A stretch of 10,307 nucleotides of DNA from Candidatus Pacearchaeota archaeon (GTDB taxonomy: Archaea > Nanobdellota > Nanobdellia > Pacearchaeales > GW2011-AR1), in contig JBNLCO010000010.1 of the NCBI GenBank assembly GCA_050303855.1, positions 222,207-232,513 of the forward strand, given 5' to 3'. Under the pieces are notes generated by a model. The model did no database searches. It worked only from the letters and a program-made list of their open reading frames with translations, and was not told the DNA's origin. The position numbers and the translations under genes were made by a program. Every line of letters begins with the position of its first letter. Positions within the stretch are counted from its first letter, which is position 1. Shown piece by piece: positions 171-10,301 of the stretch.

Positions 171-1370
171 CAAATTGCTTATATCCATTATATCTTGAGG
201 TAGTTGCTGTTGGAATGCTATCTGACATGCAGAATTACCCTTAACTGTATCTGAAAGCTTTGAAATATGCTGATCAAGACAGATTAAACTTATACCGTAT
301 TCTCTCATTTCCCTATAAACCATGTCTGTAACTGATTCTGAAAGGAAATTAGTCTTATTCTTAAGGAAGATATTATGAGCTTCATCTACAAGTATAGCGT
401 AATTGAAACCTTCATCTATTTTGTTTTGCTGTGATTTCTTTAGTTTGTATATATAAGTTAAGATATATTCTGCAAAGAATTTCTTTTCAATATTACCTAA
501 GGAATTCAACTCGAATATTACTTTCTTATCAAATAGATCTTCTACTGAAAGAGATTTCTTTCCATCGTAGTTAATTGCTTTTCCAAATTCTCCAAAAGTA
601 AGTACTGAGGCTATTCTTAATGCACTTTCATACCAAGTAGATTCTCTTCCAGAGGCCTCTCTAGCTTTCATTTCTAACATTCTTTTTACATGTTGCCAGT
701 TAGGATAGTGTTTAGAACCTTTGTAAACACCCCATCCTTCAAAAATTTCATCTAAAGTTTCCAATAATATCTTATGAACACCAAAAGAAACTGCGAAACT
801 CTCTGTTAAAAGATCACACAATACATTAATCCATTCTTTTGGGGCAACTCCTTTTGGAGGCTTATTTATATTCATTTTGAATAGATTGCTTACTGCATCG
901 TTTCCTACTGTGAAAGCCATAACAGAGGGATCAGCTCCAACTAAAGGTCTGAAAGATTTCTTCCAATCAAATACCAAGAAAGGTTTTTCCTTCTTTATGA
1001 AATTGTTAAGAACATTAAAAGCTAAAGTAGTCTTACCAGAACCGGACATACCAGATATACAAACGTGTCTTGGCCAGTCTTTTTCTTGTAATGAGAAGTC
1101 GTAAAGTTCTTTTTCTCCATAAATTACCTTGGATAGAGGGTATTCTCCTGAAACTAAAGCTTCTTTTGGAGGTTCAAGTAAAACTTTTTGATCCAAGAAT
1201 TTTCCTAAGTGTTTTTGGTATAAAGCTGCAAGAACATGAAGTATTTCGTTTTTTTCTTCTAGAGATTCTGAAAGAGTGTATCTAAAGTATAATTCGTCTA
1301 TCTTACTTCCAAGTATAGGTTTAAGCTTGTTGCTTATGTCTTCAATTGTTAGTTTTTGTGTTTGTGTCAT
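171..1370 (-). CDS. HerA/FtsK-superfamily (DUF87/AAA_10-like) P-loop ATPase, 399 aa
   Basis: Not in the supplied ORF track. Hand translation of the minus strand gives ATG at 1370-1368 and TGA at 173-171, with no in-frame stop between (checked triplet by triplet). Walker A GMSGSGKTT at aa107-115 (nt about 1026-1052). Walker B ILVDEAHNIF at aa326-335 (nt about 366-395). C-terminal REMREYGISLICLDQHISKLSD resembles the HerA 'GvgLvliTQrPsel' motif. The roughly 215-aa Walker A-to-B spacing and the DEAH Walker B are typical of the HerA/VirB4 clade rather than classical AAA+. Last gene of a co-directional three-gene cluster. Confidence 0.7.
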
Positions 1371-1415
1371 TTTCTTGTTTGTGTTTGAAGTTTAAGTTAA
1401 AAAAATAAAAAATGT

Positions 1416-1976
1416 TTAACTAAAGATATCCTCCTCAAACCTGATTTTTGCATCTTCGACAGCAGACTCCAATGCTTTTGCTTTGTTATTATATTTCTCT
1501 GCAAAATTTGTATGATAAGAATCGACTTTGTTATGAGTGAATTCTTTTGTAACGTCTTGTGCAACATTTAAACTAAAATCTGCATCCAAATAATCATCTT
1601 GCATTAATGCAATTTCTGTTTTCTTCAGATGCCTTTCAACTATTTTTTCCTTTAAATTTCTAACCTGTAACTTATAGAGATCTTTGTTATCTACTTCGTT
1701 AAAAATTAAGAAACTTTCTGCATCCCAAATTGAATCATTCCAATAAGAGGAGAAATCGTCTCCGTGTTTTACTTTGTCCAAAAAACCTTCAATAATTTGT
1801 TTTTTGTAAAAGTTTGGAGTTTCTTTCTGAGACTCCATTTCCCAATCTTGGAATGACTGTTCTGCACGAGAGTAATCGCCTTTTTCTAAATAAGAAATTC
1901 CTTGATAAAATGCATCTCTTGCTTCAGATGATTCTTTCTCAACAAAACCATATTTTGCTAATTTTGTGTTTTCCAT
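1416..1976 (-). CDS. hypothetical acidic protein (186 aa), operon partner of the HerA-like ATPase
   Basis: ORF in track. Only a 17-nt gap to the upstream gene and a 45-nt gap to the downstream ATPase gene on the same strand. D/E-rich with W/Y-rich segments (YWNDSIWDAESF). No recognisable catalytic motif. Confidence 0.5.
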   Translation of the reverse strand: MENTKLAKYGFVEKESSEARDAFYQGISYLEKGDYSRAEQSFQDWEMESQKETPNFYKKQIIEGFLDKVKHGDDFSSYWNDSIWDAESFLIFNEVDNKDLYKLQVRNLKEKIVERHLKKTEIALMQDDYLDADFSLNVAQDVTKEFTHNKVDSYHTNFAEKYNNKAKALESAVEDAKIRFEEDIFS

Positions 1977-1993
1977 ATTAATTTAACTTCCTT

Positions 1994-2440
1994 TCAATTC
2001 TCCATTAGGATATTGTTTAATTCTATGAATCTAGCTTCTTTTTCAGCGAGTTCTTTCTCGTTTTCTCTAAGTTCTTTCTTAAGTAATGCTATATCTTTCC
2101 AACAATTGATCTTTTCATTAAGCTGGTGTTCTGAGATTTCTACCTTTTTGTTCCTTAGAGAATTCTTTTCTATAATTGGGTCTTTGTCTCCTAAAACTGC
2201 AGGAGAGTTCTCAATATCCAAAAGGAAGTTACTTATCTCTAGCTTTATTTCATCTCCTTCTCTTAGGAAGTTCTGACTAAGAATATTTCTTTCTTGAATC
2301 AACTTCTGGATTTCAGAAATTGTTCTTTTTAGGGAATTAACCTTATCTTGACCTATTGATCCAATAGAGTTGCCACTTGTGAGACTTGATATTTCGGGTC
2401 TTACCGCCTCTTCCGCATGGTATTTCATATTTTCCATCAT
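1994..2440 (-). CDS. hypothetical coiled-coil protein (148 aa), first gene of the minus-strand operon
   Basis: ORF in track. K/E-rich heptad-like sequence (ELRENEKELAEKEARFIELNNILMEN). Palindromic TTTATAAA box at 2459-2466, 19-26 nt upstream of its ATG at 2440, consistent with a leaderless archaeal promoter. Confidence 0.5.
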   Translation of the reverse strand: MMENMKYHAEEAVRPEISSLTSGNSIGSIGQDKVNSLKRTISEIQKLIQERNILSQNFLREGDEIKLEISNFLLDIENSPAVLGDKDPIIEKNSLRNKKVEISEHQLNEKINCWKDIALLKKELRENEKELAEKEARFIELNNILMEN

Positions 2441-2458
2441 TTCATAGTGATAACATAC

Positions 2459-2466
2459 TTTATAAA
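2459..2466 (-). promoter_or_regulatory. palindromic TATA box TTTATAAA for the minus-strand three-gene operon (leaderless)
   Basis: TTTATAAA lies 19-26 nt upstream of the ATG at 2440. The same octamer recurs at 4639-4646 and 4893-4900, at the same distance from other start codons. Confidence 0.4.
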
Positions 2467-2534
2467 TGTTTCTATTTAGTAGTTACTCTATAGTTAGTAC
2501 ATTATCTTAAATAAAACAGGTCTCCTAGTTTAGA

Positions 2535-3296
2535 ATGGGTGAGATTCAAGACAAAGAGATAATTTCAGAGTTATGTGGGGCAATAATTGGCGATGGGTGG
2601 ATCCAATCAAATGAGAGGTGTTTCTTTCTTGCAGGAGATCCTACAGAAGATAGAGATTACTATGATTCCCACATTCCAGAAATATTTAGAAAGGTTTTGA
2701 TAACTGTGACTCCAAAAGAATTCCCCTACTGGAGTGTCTATGGCATTTCAATATATAAGAAAGACATAATTCAGAAATTACTTTCTTGGAATATCCCCAA
2801 GGGCAAAAAAGTTGACACTGCAAGAATTCCAAACTGGATAAAGAAATCAGAGGATAAAGTTAAGAAAGCGTTCCTTAGAGGATTCTTTGATGCTGATGGA
2901 AGCATCTTCTGTCAAAAAGATTATACCAAATACGCGAAGGAATTTAATTCAAAACATCATGTTAAGGCTAGATTGAGAATAACAAGTATCTCAAGTAATC
3001 TTGTAGATGAAATGAAGGGAATGTGTGAGGAAGTAGGGTTTAAAGTAATAAGAAGGACAATTAAAAGAGGGAGAATAAGTGAACGTAATTGTAAAGATAT
3101 TCACATAATTGAGATAAATCATTTGGAGAGTATAAGGAAATGGTTTGAAGAATTGAAGCCCTCTAACCCCAAACACACTACAAAATATCGGATATGGAAG
3201 AAATTTGGCTTTTGTCCTCCAAAAACGACGCTAATTCAGAGGAAAGAAATACTTAAAAATGAATTAAGCCCTTATTCATTCTATATGCAGGAGTAG
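2535..3296 (+). CDS. double-motif LAGLIDADG homing endonuclease (I-DmoI-like architecture), free-standing
   Basis: Two LAGLIDADG-type motifs about 100 aa apart: ELCGAIIGDGWIQ (aa12-24, nt about 2568-2606) and FLRGFFDADGSIF (aa113-125, nt 2871-2909). Length 253 aa fits single-chain enzymes. A/T box TTAAATAAAA at 2507-2516 lies about 24 nt before the ATG. Stop codon TAG at 3294-3296 lies inside the tRNA-Leu gene. Confidence 0.75.
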   Translation: MGEIQDKEIISELCGAIIGDGWIQSNERCFFLAGDPTEDRDYYDSHIPEIFRKVLITVTPKEFPYWSVYGISIYKKDIIQKLLSWNIPKGKKVDTARIPNWIKKSEDKVKKAFLRGFFDADGSIFCQKDYTKYAKEFNSKHHVKARLRITSISSNLVDEMKGMCEEVGFKVIRRTIKRGRISERNCKDIHIIEINHLESIRKWFEELKPSNPKHTTKYRIWKKFGFCPPKTTLIQRKEILKNELSPYSFYMQE

Positions 3297-3370
3297 CGAA
3301 GTGGTCAAACGCGCAAGACTCAAGATCTTGTCTCTTAGTGAGTTCGAAGGTTCGAATCCTTTCTCCTGCA
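3287..3370 (+). tRNA. tRNA-Leu (anticodon CAA), class II with long variable arm, CCA not encoded
   Basis: Hand-folded cloverleaf. Acceptor GCAGGAG/CTCCTGC plus discriminator A. 3-bp D-stem GCG/CGC with a GG-containing D-loop. Anticodon stem CAAGA/TCTTG with loop CTCAAGA (U33, anticodon CAA, purine 37). Variable arm CTC-TTAGT-GAG. T-arm GGTTCGAATCC. Confidence 0.85.
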
Positions 3371-3466
3371 TAAACTTTATAAAGCCAAGATAATTCGGCA
3401 TTATACGACCTGCGAGTTAATCGCGTTAGCGGGGAAACATTTTTCTCGTTAATTGGATAATATAAA

Positions 3467-3838
3467 ATGATAAAATCAAAAACAAAGATATCGAAGCAAT
3501 TAGAAAGAAAAACTAATCCAGAATTAGTCGAAACAATACTATTAGCTAAGAAGAGTGCTTCTTGGTTAGAAATTGCATCAATCTTGTCAGGATCTAGAAG
3601 AAAGAGAATTAATATTAATCTAAGTGATTTAAGTAAAAGTATTGAAAGTGAGAAAATAGTTCTTATTCCCGGAAAAGTATTGTCTGAAGGAGAAATGGAT
3701 AAAAAAGCAAAGATTGTTGCCTTAAACTTCTCTGAAAAAGCAAAAGAAAAGTTGATAAAAGCTGGATGCGAAGTTTCAAGTATACTAGAGGAAATTAAAT
3801 CAAACCCTGAAGCTAAGGGTATTAAGGTGTTAAAATGA
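3467..3838 (+). CDS. rpl18e: 50S ribosomal protein L18e
   Basis: N-terminal ...KTNPELVETILLAKK..W..IASIL..SRRKRININLSDL pattern typical of archaeal L18e. About 123 aa. Followed by L13 and S9 in the conserved archaeal order. ATGA overlap with the next gene. Confidence 0.85.
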   Translation: MIKSKTKISKQLERKTNPELVETILLAKKSASWLEIASILSGSRRKRININLSDLSKSIESEKIVLIPGKVLSEGEMDKKAKIVALNFSEKAKEKLIKAGCEVSSILEEIKSNPEAKGIKVLK

Positions 3839-4224
3839 AGGTAGTTGATGCAACAAATTATCCAATGGGAAGACTTGCAAGCTTTGTAGCAAAAGAAGCT
3901 TTGAAGGGGGAAGAAGTAAAGGTAATCAATTGTAACAAAGTCTTGATAACTGGAAGTAGAGAATATGTTGAAAAAGAGTTCCAAGTTAGAAGGGGAAGAT
4001 ATGGAAGTTCTCAAAAAGGACCAAGAATTTCAAAATCAAACGAACAAATAGTTAAAAGAACAATAAGAGGTATGCTTCCAAACTTTAGAGAAGGAAAAGG
4101 AAGAGAAGCTTACAAAAGAATAATGTGTTATAATGAAGGTTTAGGTGAAGAAGTTAAAGAGATTGTAACTCTTGGAAAAAGAAAACCAAAGAAATCAATT
4201 AAATTAGAATCAATGAGAAAATGA
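3835..4224 (+). CDS. rpl13: 50S ribosomal protein L13
   Basis: MKVVDATNYPMGRLASFVAKEALKGEEVKVINCNKVLITG matches the conserved L13 N-terminus (IDA..LGRLAS.VAK.LL.GE.V.VVN). Translationally coupled on both sides by ATGA overlaps. Confidence 0.9.
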   Translation: MKVVDATNYPMGRLASFVAKEALKGEEVKVINCNKVLITGSREYVEKEFQVRRGRYGSSQKGPRISKSNEQIVKRTIRGMLPNFREGKGREAYKRIMCYNEGLGEEVKEIVTLGKRKPKKSIKLESMRK

Positions 4225-4619
4225 AAGTAATCACATCAGGAAAAAGAAAGACAGCTATTGCAAGAGCTATACTTGAAGAAGGAACAGGAAAAGTTACAAT
4301 AAATGGTCAAGATTACAAGAAATTACAAGAATTTGATAAGTTGAAATTGGAAGAGCCATTAAGAATAACTGAGAACATATTAGGAAAATTGAATTTCAAT
4401 GTTGCAATAAAAGTTAGAGGCGGTGGAGAAAAATCACAAGTTGAAGCATCAAGACTGGCTTTAGCAAGAGCAATTGTTGAATTTACAAAATCAGAAAAAG
4501 TAGAAGATGCTTTCTGGGATTATGATAGAAATCTTCTTGTTGCTGATGTAAGAAGAAAAGAAGCTTACAAGCCTGGTGATTCCAAAGCTAGAAGTAAGAG
4601 ACAGACATCATATAGATAG
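4221..4619 (+). CDS. rps9: 30S ribosomal protein S9
   Basis: GGGEKSQVEASRLALARAIVEF and C-terminal KPGDSKARSKRQTSYR (S9 ends in ...SYR). T-rich tract follows the stop codon. Confidence 0.9.
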   Translation: MKVITSGKRKTAIARAILEEGTGKVTINGQDYKKLQEFDKLKLEEPLRITENILGKLNFNVAIKVRGGGEKSQVEASRLALARAIVEFTKSEKVEDAFWDYDRNLLVADVRRKEAYKPGDSKARSKRQTSYR

Positions 4620-5862: not shown

Positions 5863-6417
5863 TTATTCAGAAATTTTTCTTCTTTTAGTTAAGGTATCTA
5901 GTTTATCTTGTACTTTATTAAATAATATTGAAGATACAATTGGTTTATGATCTGCTTCATGAATTTGACCATCAAATTTTATCTTTCCTATATAAGCAAA
6001 ATTTCTAAGTATTTTCTTTAAACCATTTACGGAAAGTTGGTGTTTTTTTGATAGTGTGTTTAAGTTCATTCTTGGTTGTAAGAACTCTTCGAATATTTCT
6101 TCTACCTCTTCATAGTTTTGAGCTGGAACTAAAACTCCTGAATCATGATTTCTTTTATACCCAAATGGTGCTCTAGACATGTGTAATCCTTTAGAAGATT
6201 TCTTTATCATCCCAATTTTTTGATTTTCCCCACGGAACTTAGAATATTTTCTTAAAGGTTCAAGATTCTTTTCAAGGATTTTTTCTTCAATATATACATC
6301 TAATTCTTCGGGAGTATTGGGGGAGAAAGTATGGCAAATACTACATAATGTTAGTCCAAACTTACTCTTGTTCTTATCCGAAACATACCCGCATTTTACG
6401 CATTTACTTTCATTCAT
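5863..6417 (-). CDS. zinc-ribbon + serine-recombinase 'recombinase-domain' protein lacking a resolvase catalytic domain
   Basis: N-terminal CxxC...CxxC (CVKCGY...CSICH). Central GLHMSRAPFGYKRNHDSGVLVPAQNYEEVEEIFEEF and ILRNFAYIGKIKF resemble the recombinase domain of large serine recombinases (PPfGYk ... iLtNpaYiG). No N-terminal resolvase catalytic Ser domain. Start overlaps the xerA-like stop by 8 nt, suggesting translational coupling. Confidence 0.6.
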   Translation of the reverse strand: MNESKCVKCGYVSDKNKSKFGLTLCSICHTFSPNTPEELDVYIEEKILEKNLEPLRKYSKFRGENQKIGMIKKSSKGLHMSRAPFGYKRNHDSGVLVPAQNYEEVEEIFEEFLQPRMNLNTLSKKHQLSVNGLKKILRNFAYIGKIKFDGQIHEADHKPIVSSILFNKVQDKLDTLTKRRKISE

Positions 6418-7249
6418 TTTGCATCAATCCATCTATAGGGGATTTTATTTTTTTTAATTGTTCCGTTGAAACGTGAGCGTAAATTTCTGTGGTCGCAAGG
6501 TTACTATGGCCAAGAAGAGTTTGTATAAATCTTATGTCTGTTCCATTTTCTAATAAATGTGTTGCAAAAGAGTGTCTTAAGGTATGGCAGTGAACATCTT
6601 TGTTTATTCCTGCTTTTTTTGCTGTATTTGAAACTATTTTTTGCATATTTCTAGGAGTAAGTTTTCCCTTTGGACCTGAGAAAATGTAAACTTGGTTGAA
6701 TTCTTTTTGATTTTTAGCACGATTTTTTAGATCTTCATATAAGAATTCGGGAATATTAAACATACGATCTTTCTTTCCTTTAGCTTGTTTTACATAACCT
6801 ATCTTATTATCAAAATCTAGATCATCTATTTTAAGACTAACCAGTTCTGAAACCCGAAACCCACAAGCATACATAAGAGACATCATTAACCTTGATTTCT
6901 TATTTGAAGCGACATCAAACATCCTTTTGACTTCTTCTTTTGTTAAAACTGCAGGGATTCTTTTTTCTCGTTTTGGTCTTTTAATACCTTGAGTTATATC
7001 TTTTTTTAGAATATTTGAATAAGCATATTTAATTGCGGATAAGAAAACAATCGTTGAACTTGAACTTGAATCAGATAATCTCTCAACTAAGAAAAGTTTT
7101 AGATCGTCTTCACTCATATCATCTGGTATTTTATTTGTAAATATGAATAATTCATTGTTTGCTCTTAGATAGTTTCTTAAAGTATAATTGGAATTTTTAG
7201 AGATCTTCAGTTCTATTTCAAGTTTTTTTAGAAATTCTTCTGGAGTCAT
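6410..7249 (-). CDS. xerA: tyrosine recombinase, XerA/XerC/XerD-like
   Basis: C-terminal catalytic motifs: GFRVSEL (Arg I), HTLRHSFATHLLENG (H-x-x-R box), LLGHSNLATTEIYAHV (catalytic Tyr). N-terminal core-binding-like region. 279 aa, the size of archaeal XerA. Confidence 0.88.
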   Translation of the reverse strand: MTPEEFLKKLEIELKISKNSNYTLRNYLRANNELFIFTNKIPDDMSEDDLKLFLVERLSDSSSSSTIVFLSAIKYAYSNILKKDITQGIKRPKREKRIPAVLTKEEVKRMFDVASNKKSRLMMSLMYACGFRVSELVSLKIDDLDFDNKIGYVKQAKGKKDRMFNIPEFLYEDLKNRAKNQKEFNQVYIFSGPKGKLTPRNMQKIVSNTAKKAGINKDVHCHTLRHSFATHLLENGTDIRFIQTLLGHSNLATTEIYAHVSTEQLKKIKSPIDGLMQNE

Positions 7250-7250
7250 A

Positions 7251-7916
7251 TTATTTCTTAGGGGCTTTTAGGAAAAGATTTTTCCAAACAGGCTGTTTAA
7301 ACAGCTGTTTATTATCTTTGAAAACTATTGTATTTATTCCTAATTTAGAAGCGGGTTTTGTATTCCAAACTTGATTATCAATAAATAATATATTTTTTGG
7401 TTTTACCCCTATTTTTTTTATTAAAAGTTTGAAGATCTCAGGATTTGGTTTTCTCATTCCAGCGTCGCAAGATACAATTATATCATCAAAATTCTTGTAA
7501 AGTTTTGGAGGCATTAGTGCTTTCTTAGATAAAACCCATTGATCTGATAAAACACTTACATTATATCCTAATTTTTTTAGTTTAGATGCCTGATTAAACA
7601 GCCATTCATTTTGTTTGAAATGTTTTTTGTAAGAATTTATGTATAAACTTCTTACTTTCTTTTCTGAAATTTTGAAGTTTTTTGAAAGTGTAGAAACAAC
7701 TCTTTCTGGAGAGATTTTACCTTCTATTGCAAGTGCATAAGTCGTATCTATAGCATCAAGATATTGATCCAATGAAATCTTAAGTTTTTTTGCAATATCT
7801 GTGTGTACTCCAGATGGAATTAATTTTCCAGATTCTAATTTAGAACTTTCGCCTAGAGCAAGAACTCCGCTTACATCAAAAACAATGGATTTTATGTTGA
7901 GATCACCTTTTTTCAT
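7251..7916 (-). CDS. HAD-superfamily hydrolase, subfamily IA-like
   Basis: Motif I-like VFDVSGVLA (Ser at the second-Asp position). DAGMRKPNPEIF (motif III Lys, KPxPxxF). FIDNQVWN (motif IV). A/T box TTTAAAAA at 7938-7945 lies about 25 nt upstream of the ATG at 7916. Confidence 0.72.
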   Translation of the reverse strand: MKKGDLNIKSIVFDVSGVLALGESSKLESGKLIPSGVHTDIAKKLKISLDQYLDAIDTTYALAIEGKISPERVVSTLSKNFKISEKKVRSLYINSYKKHFKQNEWLFNQASKLKKLGYNVSVLSDQWVLSKKALMPPKLYKNFDDIIVSCDAGMRKPNPEIFKLLIKKIGVKPKNILFIDNQVWNTKPASKLGINTIVFKDNKQLFKQPVWKNLFLKAPKK

Positions 7917-8003
7917 GATATGGTTATACGAACTATGTTTAAAAATTCTTCTAAGATATCTTTTTATAGTTAATTCGTGTGATTGTTTGAGGAGAGGTTA
8001 AGT

Positions 8004-9632
8004 ATGAATTCAGCAATAATAGTTATAGTTGCAATAATCTGGATGATTCTAGGATATAAGTTTTATGGAAGATTTATCGAGAGAAGGGTAAAGATAAATG
8101 ACAAAGACAAAACACCTGCAAAAACTAGCAAGAACAAGGTGGATTTCTCTCCCGCTAAAAAGAAATTTCTTTTAGGACATCATTTTGCGTCGATTGCTGG
8201 AGCTGGACCAATAATAGGTCCAATACTTGCGGTTAGTTATTTTGGTTGGTTACCTGTTGCTATTTGGGTTTTAGTTGGATCTGTTTTGATCGGAGCTATG
8301 CATGATTATATTTCTTTAATTGCCTCTGTAAGAAATAAGGCTAAGGGCGTTGCTTCAATAACAAAACAATATTTGAATAAAAGATCTGGATGGGTTTTTG
8401 GATTGATGATTTGGGTAACATTAATCTTAGTTATAACTGTTTTTACAGTTTCTTCTGCGGAAAGTATAATAGAAAAACCAGATTTGATAATTCCGATAAT
8501 AACAATAACCGTTCTTTCAGTTTTCTTAGGTGTAGGCGTTGAGAAATACAAATTAAACCCCAATATTTGGAGTGTAATTGTTGTCGTTTTAAGTTTTGCT
8601 TCAGTGTGGTTAGGACAAAAAGGTTTAATCTCTGCTAATATAATAAATCCAGAAATAACTAGAATATTTTGGATAAGTATAATTATGTTGTATGCTTTCA
8701 TTGCTTCAGTAGTTCCAGTTTGGGTTTTGTTGAGGCCAAGAGGGTATCTTAGTTCAATACAATTAGTTGTGATTTTGCTTTTAGGGTTTGTTGGAATATT
8801 AATAGTGGGCCCTCAAATAAATGCTCCAGCATATATTCCTAATGCACCATTTCCATTATGGCCAATATTATTTATTACGGTAGCATGTGGCGCTGTATCC
8901 GGATTCCATGGAATTGTTTCTTCTGGAACAACAAGCAAACAGCTATCCAAAGAAAGTGATGGAAGACCTATTGCGTATGGTGGAATGTTGATGGAAGGTT
9001 TGTTAGCAATACTTGTTACAACGATAGTTGTTGCAGGGTTAAAATGGGGTGCGGGAGTTCAAGGAGGTTTCCAATTAACCTTAGAAAAAGGGTGGATAGT
9101 TTTGTTTTCGGAAGGGTTTGGAAATATAGTTGGAAGCCTAGGAATACCTTTGATAACTATGACAATTGCAGGATTGCTTGGAGCGTTTATGGTTAATCAA
9201 TTTATTTTAACTTCAGTAGATACTTCATCAAGGTTGGGAAGGTTTGTATTTACAGAAACACTATTTCCCAAGGTAAAGAATAGATATTTGACAACATTTA
9301 TAGTGTTAATTCCTGCTTGGCTTCTTGCAATAACAAATTCTTATCAGAGTTTATGGAGATTATTTGGAACCTCAAATCAATTAATTGCATCTATAACTCT
9401 TATTGGTCTTTCTTCTTACTTTATATCTAAGAAAATAAAGACTAAATTCATAACAATACCAGCAGTATTTGTTTTAGTTACAACAATGTCTGCTTTGTTA
9501 TACTTAACATTTAGATCTGGAGGGTATTTCACTGAAGGGAAGATTGCTTTAGGAATAATTTCACTAATAATGTTTGGTTTAGGCGCGGTAGTAGCTTATG
9601 AAGGATTTAGAACTTTGATTAAGAAGAAGTGA
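8004..9632 (+). CDS. cstA: carbon starvation protein CstA-family peptide/pyruvate transporter
   Basis: HHFASIAGAGPIIGPILAVSYFGWLPVAIWVLVGSVLIGAMHDY is the CstA signature region. Polytopic membrane protein. The track begins the ORF at 7983 with a TTG codon. ATG at 8004 is preferred as the start because GGAGAGG (7991-7997) sits 6 nt upstream as an SD-like element. TTTTTATA at 7961-7968 is a possible TATA box. Confidence 0.88.
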   Translation: MNSAIIVIVAIIWMILGYKFYGRFIERRVKINDKDKTPAKTSKNKVDFSPAKKKFLLGHHFASIAGAGPIIGPILAVSYFGWLPVAIWVLVGSVLIGAMHDYISLIASVRNKAKGVASITKQYLNKRSGWVFGLMIWVTLILVITVFTVSSAESIIEKPDLIIPIITITVLSVFLGVGVEKYKLNPNIWSVIVVVLSFASVWLGQKGLISANIINPEITRIFWISIIMLYAFIASVVPVWVLLRPRGYLSSIQLVVILLLGFVGILIVGPQINAPAYIPNAPFPLWPILFITVACGAVSGFHGIVSSGTTSKQLSKESDGRPIAYGGMLMEGLLAILVTTIVVAGLKWGAGVQGGFQLTLEKGWIVLFSEGFGNIVGSLGIPLITMTIAGLLGAFMVNQFILTSVDTSSRLGRFVFTETLFPKVKNRYLTTFIVLIPAWLLAITNSYQSLWRLFGTSNQLIASITLIGLSSYFISKKIKTKFITIPAVFVLVTTMSALLYLTFRSGGYFTEGKIALGIISLIMFGLGAVVAYEGFRTLIKKK

Positions 9633-10301
9633 TTATCCTTTGTTGTAAATAGTTCTGACTTTTTCTTCAAACTCTTTCTGAACTGCTTTTGGAACATAAT
9701 CATTTGATAATTTCAGAATCTCTAAAATATTCTGATCAACCAATATCCCCTCTTCTAAATTTTTCTTTGCGGCTCCGCCGCTAGATCCGACGAACCGATC
9801 GCTCCAGTCGCCAAGATCGCCCCTAGCGAGGGCAATAGACCTGCTCCCAAGCCTGCTGAGGTACAAGGCACGTCCCTTTTCAAAGTTACTTTTAGAATCA
9901 AAATAAATCTCCATAGCTTTTTCTATCCCAAATCTTTTCTTCATTTCAGGGAAGAATTCATCTGCATAGTCAGAAAGTAATTTATTGCCTCTTGCTAGAA
10001 AATTCCATATTTCAGAATCTTTCACACTTTCAACTGTGTAAGTTTTATTGTGAAGATTTTTCACTTCACCTTTGGACAAATATAATACTTTACTCTTGTC
10101 ATTTAAGCTTTCAAAAGTTCCATTGTCTAAAACAACTGCTCCTTCATTTAATTTTGTTGAAGGGTTAATATTTCTGATGTAATCTGCATCCAAGACAATT
10201 TTAACATCTCCTCTTGTATTGTAAACTGTTCCGTCAGAAGTGTCAAAAAAATTATCTTTCCAATCTGAGAATTCTCTTCCATAACTCAATCTATTTTGCA
10301 T
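9633..10301 (-). CDS. hypothetical protein (at least 222 aa; 5' end may extend beyond the window)
   Basis: ORF in track. The reading frame stays open upstream of the ATG at 10301 to the window edge. No recognisable family. Contains an anomalous GC-rich segment (see findings). Convergent with cstA with a 0-nt spacer. Confidence 0.5.
   Translation of the reverse strand: MQNRLSYGREFSDWKDNFFDTSDGTVYNTRGDVKIVLDADYIRNINPSTKLNEGAVVLDNGTFESLNDKSKVLYLSKGEVKNLHNKTYTVESVKDSEIWNFLARGNKLLSDYADEFFPEMKKRFGIEKAMEIYFDSKSNFEKGRALYLSRLGSRSIALARGDLGDWSDRFVGSSGGAAKKNLEEGILVDQNILEILKLSNDYVPKAVQKEFEEKVRTIYNKG

Follow-up and report, generated by a model that had tools for sequence, protein, structure and literature searches.

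What does a HerA/FtsK-type ATPase do when it is encoded in the chromosome of a DPANN archaeon beside small proteins that resemble nothing described? The question is raised by a stretch of 10,307 nucleotides (nt) from Candidatus Pacearchaeota archaeon (GenBank assembly GCA_050303855.1, contig JBNLCO010000010.1, positions 222,207 to 232,513 of the forward strand), which was analyzed whole and is called the window here. It has about 32% GC and an archaeal gene content. At its left end, the minus strand carries genes for a 148-amino-acid (aa) protein, which we call C1, for a 186-aa protein, and for the ATPase. The original prediction, made from the sequence alone, took these for a three-gene operon in accessory surroundings and proposed a previously undescribed ATPase-centered system. 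The system is indeed real and uncharacterized, but neither the three-gene operon nor the accessory character held up.

The conserved unit consists of C1 and the ATPase

The close branch of the family was represented by 26 sources, namely the window and 25 related loci, gathered by looking up exact proteins and by scanning the species genomes of GTDB; the labels on their records read Woesearchaeota, Pacearchaeota, Nanoarchaeota or Diapherotrites, and their open reading frames (ORFs) were clustered. A C1 gene lay directly upstream of the ATPase gene in 24 of the 24 related loci that retained upstream sequence. Between the two genes is a slot that was unoccupied in 11 of 24 related loci; there the genes were separated by −14 to +6 nt in ten cases and by 47 nt in one. 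The closest relative (ATPase 85% identical) has no middle gene. Filled slots elsewhere encoded small, mostly acidic proteins of four mutually unrecognizable groups, with BLAST E-values above 0.8 across groups when middle-slot proteins of different loci were compared. The 186-aa protein of the window found no homolog besides itself among 5.8 billion proteins. Because the slot is often empty, even in the closest relative, the conserved unit is a two-gene module of C1 and the ATPase. The 186-aa gene is, to judge from this distribution, a recent lineage-specific insertion between two conserved genes, so that the three-gene system first envisaged is reduced to two.

Both small ORFs are present on the minus strand where the original prediction had placed them, with spacers of 17 nt between the C1 and 186-aa genes (1977-1993) and 45 nt between the 186-aa and ATPase genes (1371-1415). 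They are not products of chance, since the probability of a stop-free frame of 186 codons at 32% GC is only about 4e-7 (an estimate by arithmetic). The 186-aa protein, which had been called highly acidic, is acidic but only moderately so, with an isoelectric point of 4.8 and 39 aspartates and glutamates against 26 lysines and arginines. It contains one weak TPR-like stretch near the N-terminus (HemY_N/TPR_2, E 0.009-0.05) and had no significant match in PADLOC.

The module was found at a single fixed position in all related genomes examined, which are of Pacearchaeota or Woesearchaeota type. Read along the ribosomal strand, the order is S13-S4-S11-RpoD, then a variable block, the ATPase and C1 on the opposite strand, and then tRNA-Leu-L18e-L13-S9; beyond S9, related loci carry HAD, Xer-type recombinase and Recombinase-domain genes. 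The tRNA-Leu gene, a conserved marker of the border between the module and the L18e-L13-S9 operon, lay between L18e and C1 in 15 of 18 related loci scanned; L015 carries it there on the opposite strand, and L016 and L024 showed none. Hundreds of ATPase clusters were recovered at 90% identity, the top 120 of them 72-87% identical to the query. Median identity to the related loci was 75% for the ATPase core (first 456 aa), compared with 69% for S9, 66% for the Xer-type recombinase, 60% for L18e, 56% for C1 and 55% for L13, and the identity of the full-length ATPase ranged from 61 to 76%. These comparisons show that purifying selection is very strong at this fixed core locus. Because the position is fixed within a canonical ribosomal-protein and RNA-polymerase cluster and the ATPase core has diverged less than the neighboring ribosomal proteins, the locus is not accessory, contrary to the context originally proposed; nor is it a defense-island locus. 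Nuclease-less relatives with 45-52% identity also occur elsewhere in the chromosome, near genes for aminoacyl-tRNA synthetases or a DNA glycosylase, and these have kept C1.

The ATPase and its place in the HerA/FtsK superfamily

The ATPase had been read as a protein of 399 aa ending at position 171. The codon at 173-171 is TTG, however, and the frame remains open for 456 codons; the cluster does continue leftward, as had been suspected, in that the ATPase gene itself is cut by the window edge. The full protein has 687 aa (P0001, which matches the 456 aa in the window at 100% identity), and about one third of it, including the predicted DNA-binding C-terminus, lies off-window.

The earlier assignment to the HerA/FtsK superfamily was borne out. 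The Pfam model DUF87 ("Helicase HerA, central domain") matched at 28.8-31 bits, just over its cut-off, alongside Zot and generic P-loop models. In the family alignment, G107, G110, K113, E330, H332, R356 and Q367 are invariant, relatives at 25% identity included. According to a comparative study of these ATPases, the superfamily is marked by a sensor-1 glutamine at which core strand 4 ends and by an arginine finger shortly before it in the sequence (PMC10853773). In our model, Q367 closes a strand formed by residues 360-366 and is preceded by R353 and R356. The motifs, this Arg/Gln arrangement and the fold together make the protein a bona fide member of the HerA/FtsK "pumping ATPase" superfamily, and its conserved catalytic residues suggest that it is probably active.

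The structure was modelled with AlphaFold from 20 homologs; the mean predicted local distance difference test score (pLDDT) was 65, with well-defined domains. The N-terminus forms a three-helix domain (residues 9-60) and is followed by short strands before the P-loop, without a barrel. The RecA-like core (81-433) bears a four-helix insert whose helices span residues 177-191, 196-212, 225-238 and 242-258 (pLDDT about 80-93). After the core come a disordered linker, a three-helix domain (510-558) and a second linker, and the C-terminus (601-685) is modelled as a helix-helix-helix-strand-strand winged helix with pLDDT 85-90. In fold comparisons, the ATPase model scored 29.2 with the C-terminal domain of DndH, 25.7 with VirB4, 21.1 with HerA, 20.6 with TrwB, 15.9 with STIV2 B204 and 13.4 with FtsK. 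The C-terminus scored about 9-10 with MarR-family winged helices and, among the matches listed, resembles MarR-type folds and not FtsK-gamma.

Family-level models fitted far less well. The two best NCBIfam matches, both far below threshold, were the C-terminus of an uncharacterized "serine-rich protein" (79-81 bits against a cut-off of 650) and CedD (58-62 bits against 600). The VirB4 model TIGR00929 gave 19.5 bits against 643, and PF01580 FtsK_SpoIIIE was also sub-threshold (E=0.075, 12.9 bits against 24). PADLOC returned partial, weak matches for the ATPase (mad8 at 47 bits, HerA models at 37 bits or less), so that no model of a defense system matched beyond the level of a domain. The ATPase is not a canonical HerA, VirB4, CedB/D, FtsK or DndH.

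A canonical HerA that assists in end resection, with NurA (and Mre11/Rad50) encoded just off the window, might nevertheless be suggested by the name of the Pfam model above cut-off and by the fact that Sulfolobus solfataricus HerA was the sole significant sequence match in the PDB (E=2e-3 with a single sequence, 2e-4 with a profile). We consider it highly improbable. The HerA equivalogs of NCBIfam, HerA_Thermprot included, scored 22-25 bits against cut-offs of 800-970, or about 3%, and the modelled N-terminus consists of three helices, with no HAS barrel in the model (medium confidence). A C-terminal winged helix is foreign to the HerA architecture. The lack of NurA noted originally also extends further: neither the window nor 24 related loci, followed for up to 10 kb downstream, showed NurA, Mre11 or Rad50, a result that rests on Pfam annotation, in which most downstream products have no match at all.

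C1 as a helical partner

Homologs of C1 (n=302) were found on contigs that carry the ATPase, and none has a Pfam domain. The protein had been described as a coiled coil, and its model (pLDDT 80) agrees with this: a disordered N-terminus of 25 residues precedes two long helices, 26-78 and 87-147, in the manner of a helical hairpin or coiled coil. The disordered part bears a conserved PEIxGF-like motif, and the second helix contains the near-invariant motif KNxLRNKKxEISExQLxEKIxCWKD. Profile and fold searches against the PDB returned generic coiled coils only (vimentin, E>3; an F-BAR protein, E=1e-3), and PADLOC gave nothing significant, its sole match being PbeC at E=0.02 and 11 bits. Searches of Pfam, PADLOC and NCBIfam, and for C1 also of folds, placed neither of the small proteins in a described family, in line with their first description as unrecognizable.

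A variable block of membrane and secreted proteins downstream

Between the ATPase and RpoD-S11-S4-S13, off-window, lies the variable block of 8-20 genes on the ATPase strand, whose products are small membrane, signal-peptide or lipoprotein-like proteins. It lies 300-500 nt past the ATPase and is hypervariable in gene content among genomes; each gene has its own promoter-like box resembling TTTAAATTT, and some have GGAGG. The position of these genes raises the question of whether the ATPase is the cytoplasmic motor of a Ced/Ted- or type IV-like surface apparatus for DNA transfer or secretion, acting together with the membrane and secreted products of these genes. Such genes follow the ATPase in all related loci, CedD is among its two best NCBIfam matches, and a precedent exists in the archaeal pT26-2 plasmids, in which a HerA/VirB4-like ATPase is accompanied by many membrane proteins and for which a transfer function has been proposed (PMC6972569). 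The CedD score, however, is far under its cut-off, and the ATPase has no transmembrane segment by a simple hydropathy scan and no VirB4-type N-terminal domain in the model. The downstream genes, for their part, are hypervariable and set apart by their distance and their own promoter-like boxes. No type IV secretion system genes and no conserved polytopic partner (VirB6/CedA-like) or pilin were found in the related loci, and the nuclease-less relatives elsewhere in the chromosome, like the mobile-element relatives described below, lack such a downstream block. A transfer motor therefore appears to be a distinctly unlikely reading of the pair.

The block interrupts a canonical gene order: in this clade, the run S13-S4-S11-RpoD-L18e-L13-S9 is split between RpoD and tRNA-Leu by opposite-strand sequence measuring about 9-11 kb in L002, L010 and L017, and the split was seen with L023 too. 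In L017, the 5' ends that encode signal peptides are duplicated, with an identical repeat of 83 nt. We considered an element integrated at tRNA-Leu, and this was unsupported: no tRNA-derived direct repeats flank the block in three loci, the block lies 5' of the tRNA, and no integrase is found inside it. An ancient integration event could have lost its traces.

Distant relatives carry a nuclease-like domain

The wider family was searched exhaustively with HMMER against 1.8 billion cluster representatives, of which 309 matched at E<1e-30. Many of the distant relatives are 650-720 aa long and 25-40% identical to the window ATPase; one of the relatives bears the label "Brocadiia bacterium". In nearly all of them the winged helix is followed by a further domain of about 130 aa, with invariant H, E and D residues and the motif E[IV]ETGKS. 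The profile of this domain best matched PD-(D/E)xK nucleases, Cas4 leading at E=3e-3 ahead of AF1548, Hjc and OkrAI, weak but consistent indications that it is a PD-(D/E)xK-like nuclease. No such domain was found in the window's branch (P0001, P0244 and P0253), whose proteins end right after the winged helix. By sequence comparison, this branch is the nuclease-less part of a wider family whose mobile-element members carry the putative PD-(D/E)xK-like domain.

The pairing with C1 extends to the nuclease-bearing branch, where a C1-like gene lay directly upstream in 62 of 82 loci. The C1-like genes there share the motif W[KQ]D..[LI]KK[ED]L, and a hidden Markov model built from this branch matched two upstream genes tested directly at E-values of 5e-10 and 2e-8. 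An Orc1/Cdc6 gene was present in 26 of the 82 loci, often immediately downstream; the compact proteins that these neighbors encode measure 347 aa at the median (range 131-419 aa, truncated copies included). A tyrosine integrase gene occurred in 18 of 82, and other neighbors varied (AbiEi/Eii, ThiF/JAB, Dcm methyltransferase, SNF2 and PLD genes). The mobile-element or defense surroundings originally suspected are therefore found around distant relatives, with their integrase and Orc1/Cdc6 neighbors, but not at the window's locus. Family members were not found on viral contigs, in GenBank phages or on sequenced plasmids. In an unrooted neighbor-joining tree, the nuclease-less clade is monophyletic; as to direction, we favor domestication from a diverse mobile pool.

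Two distant members stood out in gene structure. One relative of the ATPase (P0269, 996 aa) is annotated as a single protein whose C-terminus is a RecJ-like DHH/DHHA1 nuclease (NCBIfam recJ, E=8e-11); the fusion could be real or a merge produced by gene calling. One mobile-element contig (L027) encodes two DUF87 ATPases (1-1470 and 7583-10043), the second preceded by a 194-aa Cys-rich protein without a match to the C1 profile, which suggests paralogous ATPase modules with differing small partners.

Given such neighborhoods, the pair might be a defense or exclusion module in which a motor with a DNA-binding tail intercepts invading DNA and the acidic small protein serves as the specificity or arms-race part. 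The fast turnover of the middle slot would suit this role, as would the neighbors of the nuclease-bearing relatives, the weak PADLOC matches of the ATPase together with a DndH match of 48 bits for the relative P0391, and a likeness to Orc/CDC6-HerA/FtsK-REase-wHTH (restriction endonuclease and winged helix-turn-helix) sets that a 2024 study predicts to be defensive "capture" systems (PMC10853773). The window's branch, however, has no nuclease or other effector domain, no effector gene lies near the pair (Sir2, DUF4297 and TdpB partners were not found), the middle gene is often absent, and the small proteins match no PADLOC model. Genes for defense are usually patchy in distribution and fast-evolving, whereas this locus is fixed in the ribosomal-protein and RNA-polymerase cluster of every related genome examined and its ATPase core outconserves the ribosomal proteins beside it. 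We regard a defense role as unlikely.

A proposed role in chromosomal DNA handling

We propose, with moderate confidence, that C1 and the ATPase are the adaptor and the motor of a DNA translocase that has no nuclease and a fixed place in the chromosome, and that this translocase would be part of core housekeeping in DPANN archaea of Pacearchaeota or Woesearchaeota type. The ATPase would form a ring, as its structural relatives do, and its winged-helix tail would seat the ring on double-stranded DNA, which the ring would pump at the expense of ATP. C1 may oligomerize and serve the ring as adaptor or regulator, tethering or gating it. The task of the pair would most likely be to handle chromosomal DNA, for instance in segregation, in resolution or in clearing DNA at division, and anti-phage defense is the less likely task.

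Several observations weigh against this proposal. C1 has no informative structural match, so that its adaptor role is a guess, and the ATPase model is of medium quality, as its mean pLDDT indicates. Neither a membrane anchor nor another obvious tie to the division machinery is present. Hypervariability in a small middle gene fits a conflict system better than a housekeeping operon, and with other family members in mobile-element or defense-like neighborhoods, a conflict role for the chromosomal branch is possible. A related account, to which we assign a low probability, begins with a DNA pump of mobile elements that, in a large DPANN clade, lost its nuclease or never had one and, together with a dedicated coiled-coil adaptor, is now an essential chromosomal translocase, working either in FtsK-like segregation and dimer resolution or as a motor for DNA uptake.

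DPANN genomes are tiny and hold few core genes without an assigned function; the C1-ATPase pair is such a case, and it occurs in hundreds of lineages. We know of no FtsK equivalent that has been identified for chromosome segregation or resolution in DPANN archaea. A chromosomal translocase, if this is what the pair encodes, would bear on how these archaea segregate or resolve their chromosomes, and it would be a clear case of a motor common to mobile elements or defense and to core cell biology. The strict pairing with C1 across chromosomal and mobile-element branches also offers a testable handle on uncharacterized HerA/FtsK systems.

Gene layout and other features of the locus

The features of the locus are collected in Table 1. 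The TATA box described originally was found, and it lies about 22-26 nt 5' of the C1 ATG, a spacing consistent with a leaderless transcript and a putative promoter. The T6AT7 run could be an oligo-T terminator, or else a TATA-like element about 30 nt 5' of the ATPase start. Because this run could terminate or start transcription, the genes need not be read as a single transcript from one TATA box.

Table 1. Features of the locus, by window position unless a related locus is named
Feature	Position	Strand	Basis
C1 gene (148-aa protein)	1994..2440	-	ORF list
Middle gene (186-aa orphan ORF)	1416..1976	-	ORF list
ATPase gene, first 456 of 687 codons	1..1370	-	Open frame to window edge
Walker A GMSGSGKT, residues 107-114	1029..1052	-	Sequence reading; invariant positions in family alignment
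Four-helix bundle inserted in P-loop domain, residues 177-258	597..842	-	Predicted model
Walker B ILVDEAH (326-332), candidate arginine finger R356, sensor-1 Q367	270..395	-	Alignment and modelled strand
TATA-like box TTTATAAA	2459..2466	-	Sequence reading
T6AT7 run in 45-nt spacer before ATPase	1399..1412	-	Sequence reading
tRNA-Leu(CAA)	3286..3371	+	ARAGORN
LAGLIDADG homing-endonuclease ORF	2535..3296	+	Pfam LAGLIDADG_3, E=8e-8
L18e-L13-S9 operon	3467..4619	+	
Variable block	L002 10485-14694; L010 12521-20212; L017 12365-18135		Off-window, downstream of ATPase

The LAGLIDADG and tRNA neighbors named originally were both recovered. The LAGLIDADG ORF is free-standing and overlaps the 5' end of tRNA-Leu(CAA) by 11 nt; in L004 it likewise adjoins the tRNA, but most related genomes lack it, and it looks like a mobile insertion just 5' of the tRNA. 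Further along the window, a 184-aa gene and an Xer-like tyrosine recombinase gene overlap by 8 nt (5863-6417 and 6410-7249, both on the minus strand). The 184-aa product has a Zn-ribbon and a PF07508 "Recombinase" domain, and the two genes are kept together in about 20 related loci, with apparently one fused ORF in L007 and L024. At the right end of the window, a minus-strand ORF of 222 aa without a Pfam match (9633-10301) stands beside a CstA-like transporter gene (7983-9632).

Comparison with known systems

Within a limited collection of papers, a search combining DPANN, Woesearchaeota or Pacearchaeota with HerA, FtsK or DUF87 returned nothing relevant. HerA-like ATPases rank among the commonest families of archaeal integrated elements (PMC4158269), and the "HerA-like helicase" arCOG00280 of archaeal dark-matter islands and integrated elements agrees in context with the distant relatives of the window ATPase, although the window's copy lies outside any integrated element.

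The 2024 comparative-genomics study describes mobile neighborhoods that combine Orc/CDC6, REase, HerA/FtsK and wHTH components, reports a 4-helical insert in some mobile-element HerA/FtsK domains, and predicts that these sets act against invaders as "HerA/FtsK capture" systems (PMC10853773). With the window ATPase, the capture systems share the HerA/FtsK class, the Arg finger with the sensor-1 Gln, the 4-helical insert and a winged helix. They fit the distant relatives broadly, through a REase-fold domain and Orc1/Cdc6 and integrase neighbors, though the compact Orc1/Cdc6 proteins of these relatives leave, judging by their length, little room for the inactive REase inserted in the capture systems. 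The window's branch differs from them in having neither nuclease nor Orc/Cdc6 and in being chromosomally fixed and highly conserved. An obligate small coiled-coil partner and a fixed nuclease-less DPANN branch are not mentioned in the sections of that study that were consulted (PMC10853773).

Canonical HerA and the known anti-phage systems that use HerA also differ. Canonical HerA, HerA-Sir2, HerA-DUF4297 and TdpAB have a HAS barrel and partners that the window locus lacks, and across these systems, the type III-associated HerA, MADS and DndFGH, we found no full-length match to the ATPase and no cognate effector. The closest domain in fold is the C-terminal ATPase domain of DndH (DptH; PDB 7es4), at 16% identity. 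The 2024 study describes DndH as an eight-domain protein of about 1700 aa that has a methylase-like module and a REase among its parts and works with DndF and DndG (PMC10853773); none of these additional parts is present at the window locus.

Among transfer systems, CedD is a HerA-clade ATPase that Sulfolobales have been shown by genetics to need for DNA import (PMC11868833). VirB4 and CedB/CedD share the superfamily with the window ATPase, and the likeness to CedD is at the domain level only, as its bit score shows. The window ATPase lacks a transmembrane segment, a VirB4-like N-terminal domain and a CedA/VirB6-like or pilin partner, and its C-terminal winged helix is not a feature of VirB4 or Ced.

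FtsK and the TraB of Streptomyces are ring DNA translocases guided by a C-terminal winged helix. The window ATPase differs from FtsK in its sub-threshold Pfam score, in having no N-terminal membrane domain, and in its winged helix, which among the matches listed resembles MarR-type folds. By analogy, however, it may follow the same functional logic, that of an additional-strand catalytic glutamate (ASCE) ring motor with a C-terminal winged helix, and its setting is FtsK-like as well, a conserved chromosomal pair about 4 kb from an Xer-type recombinase.

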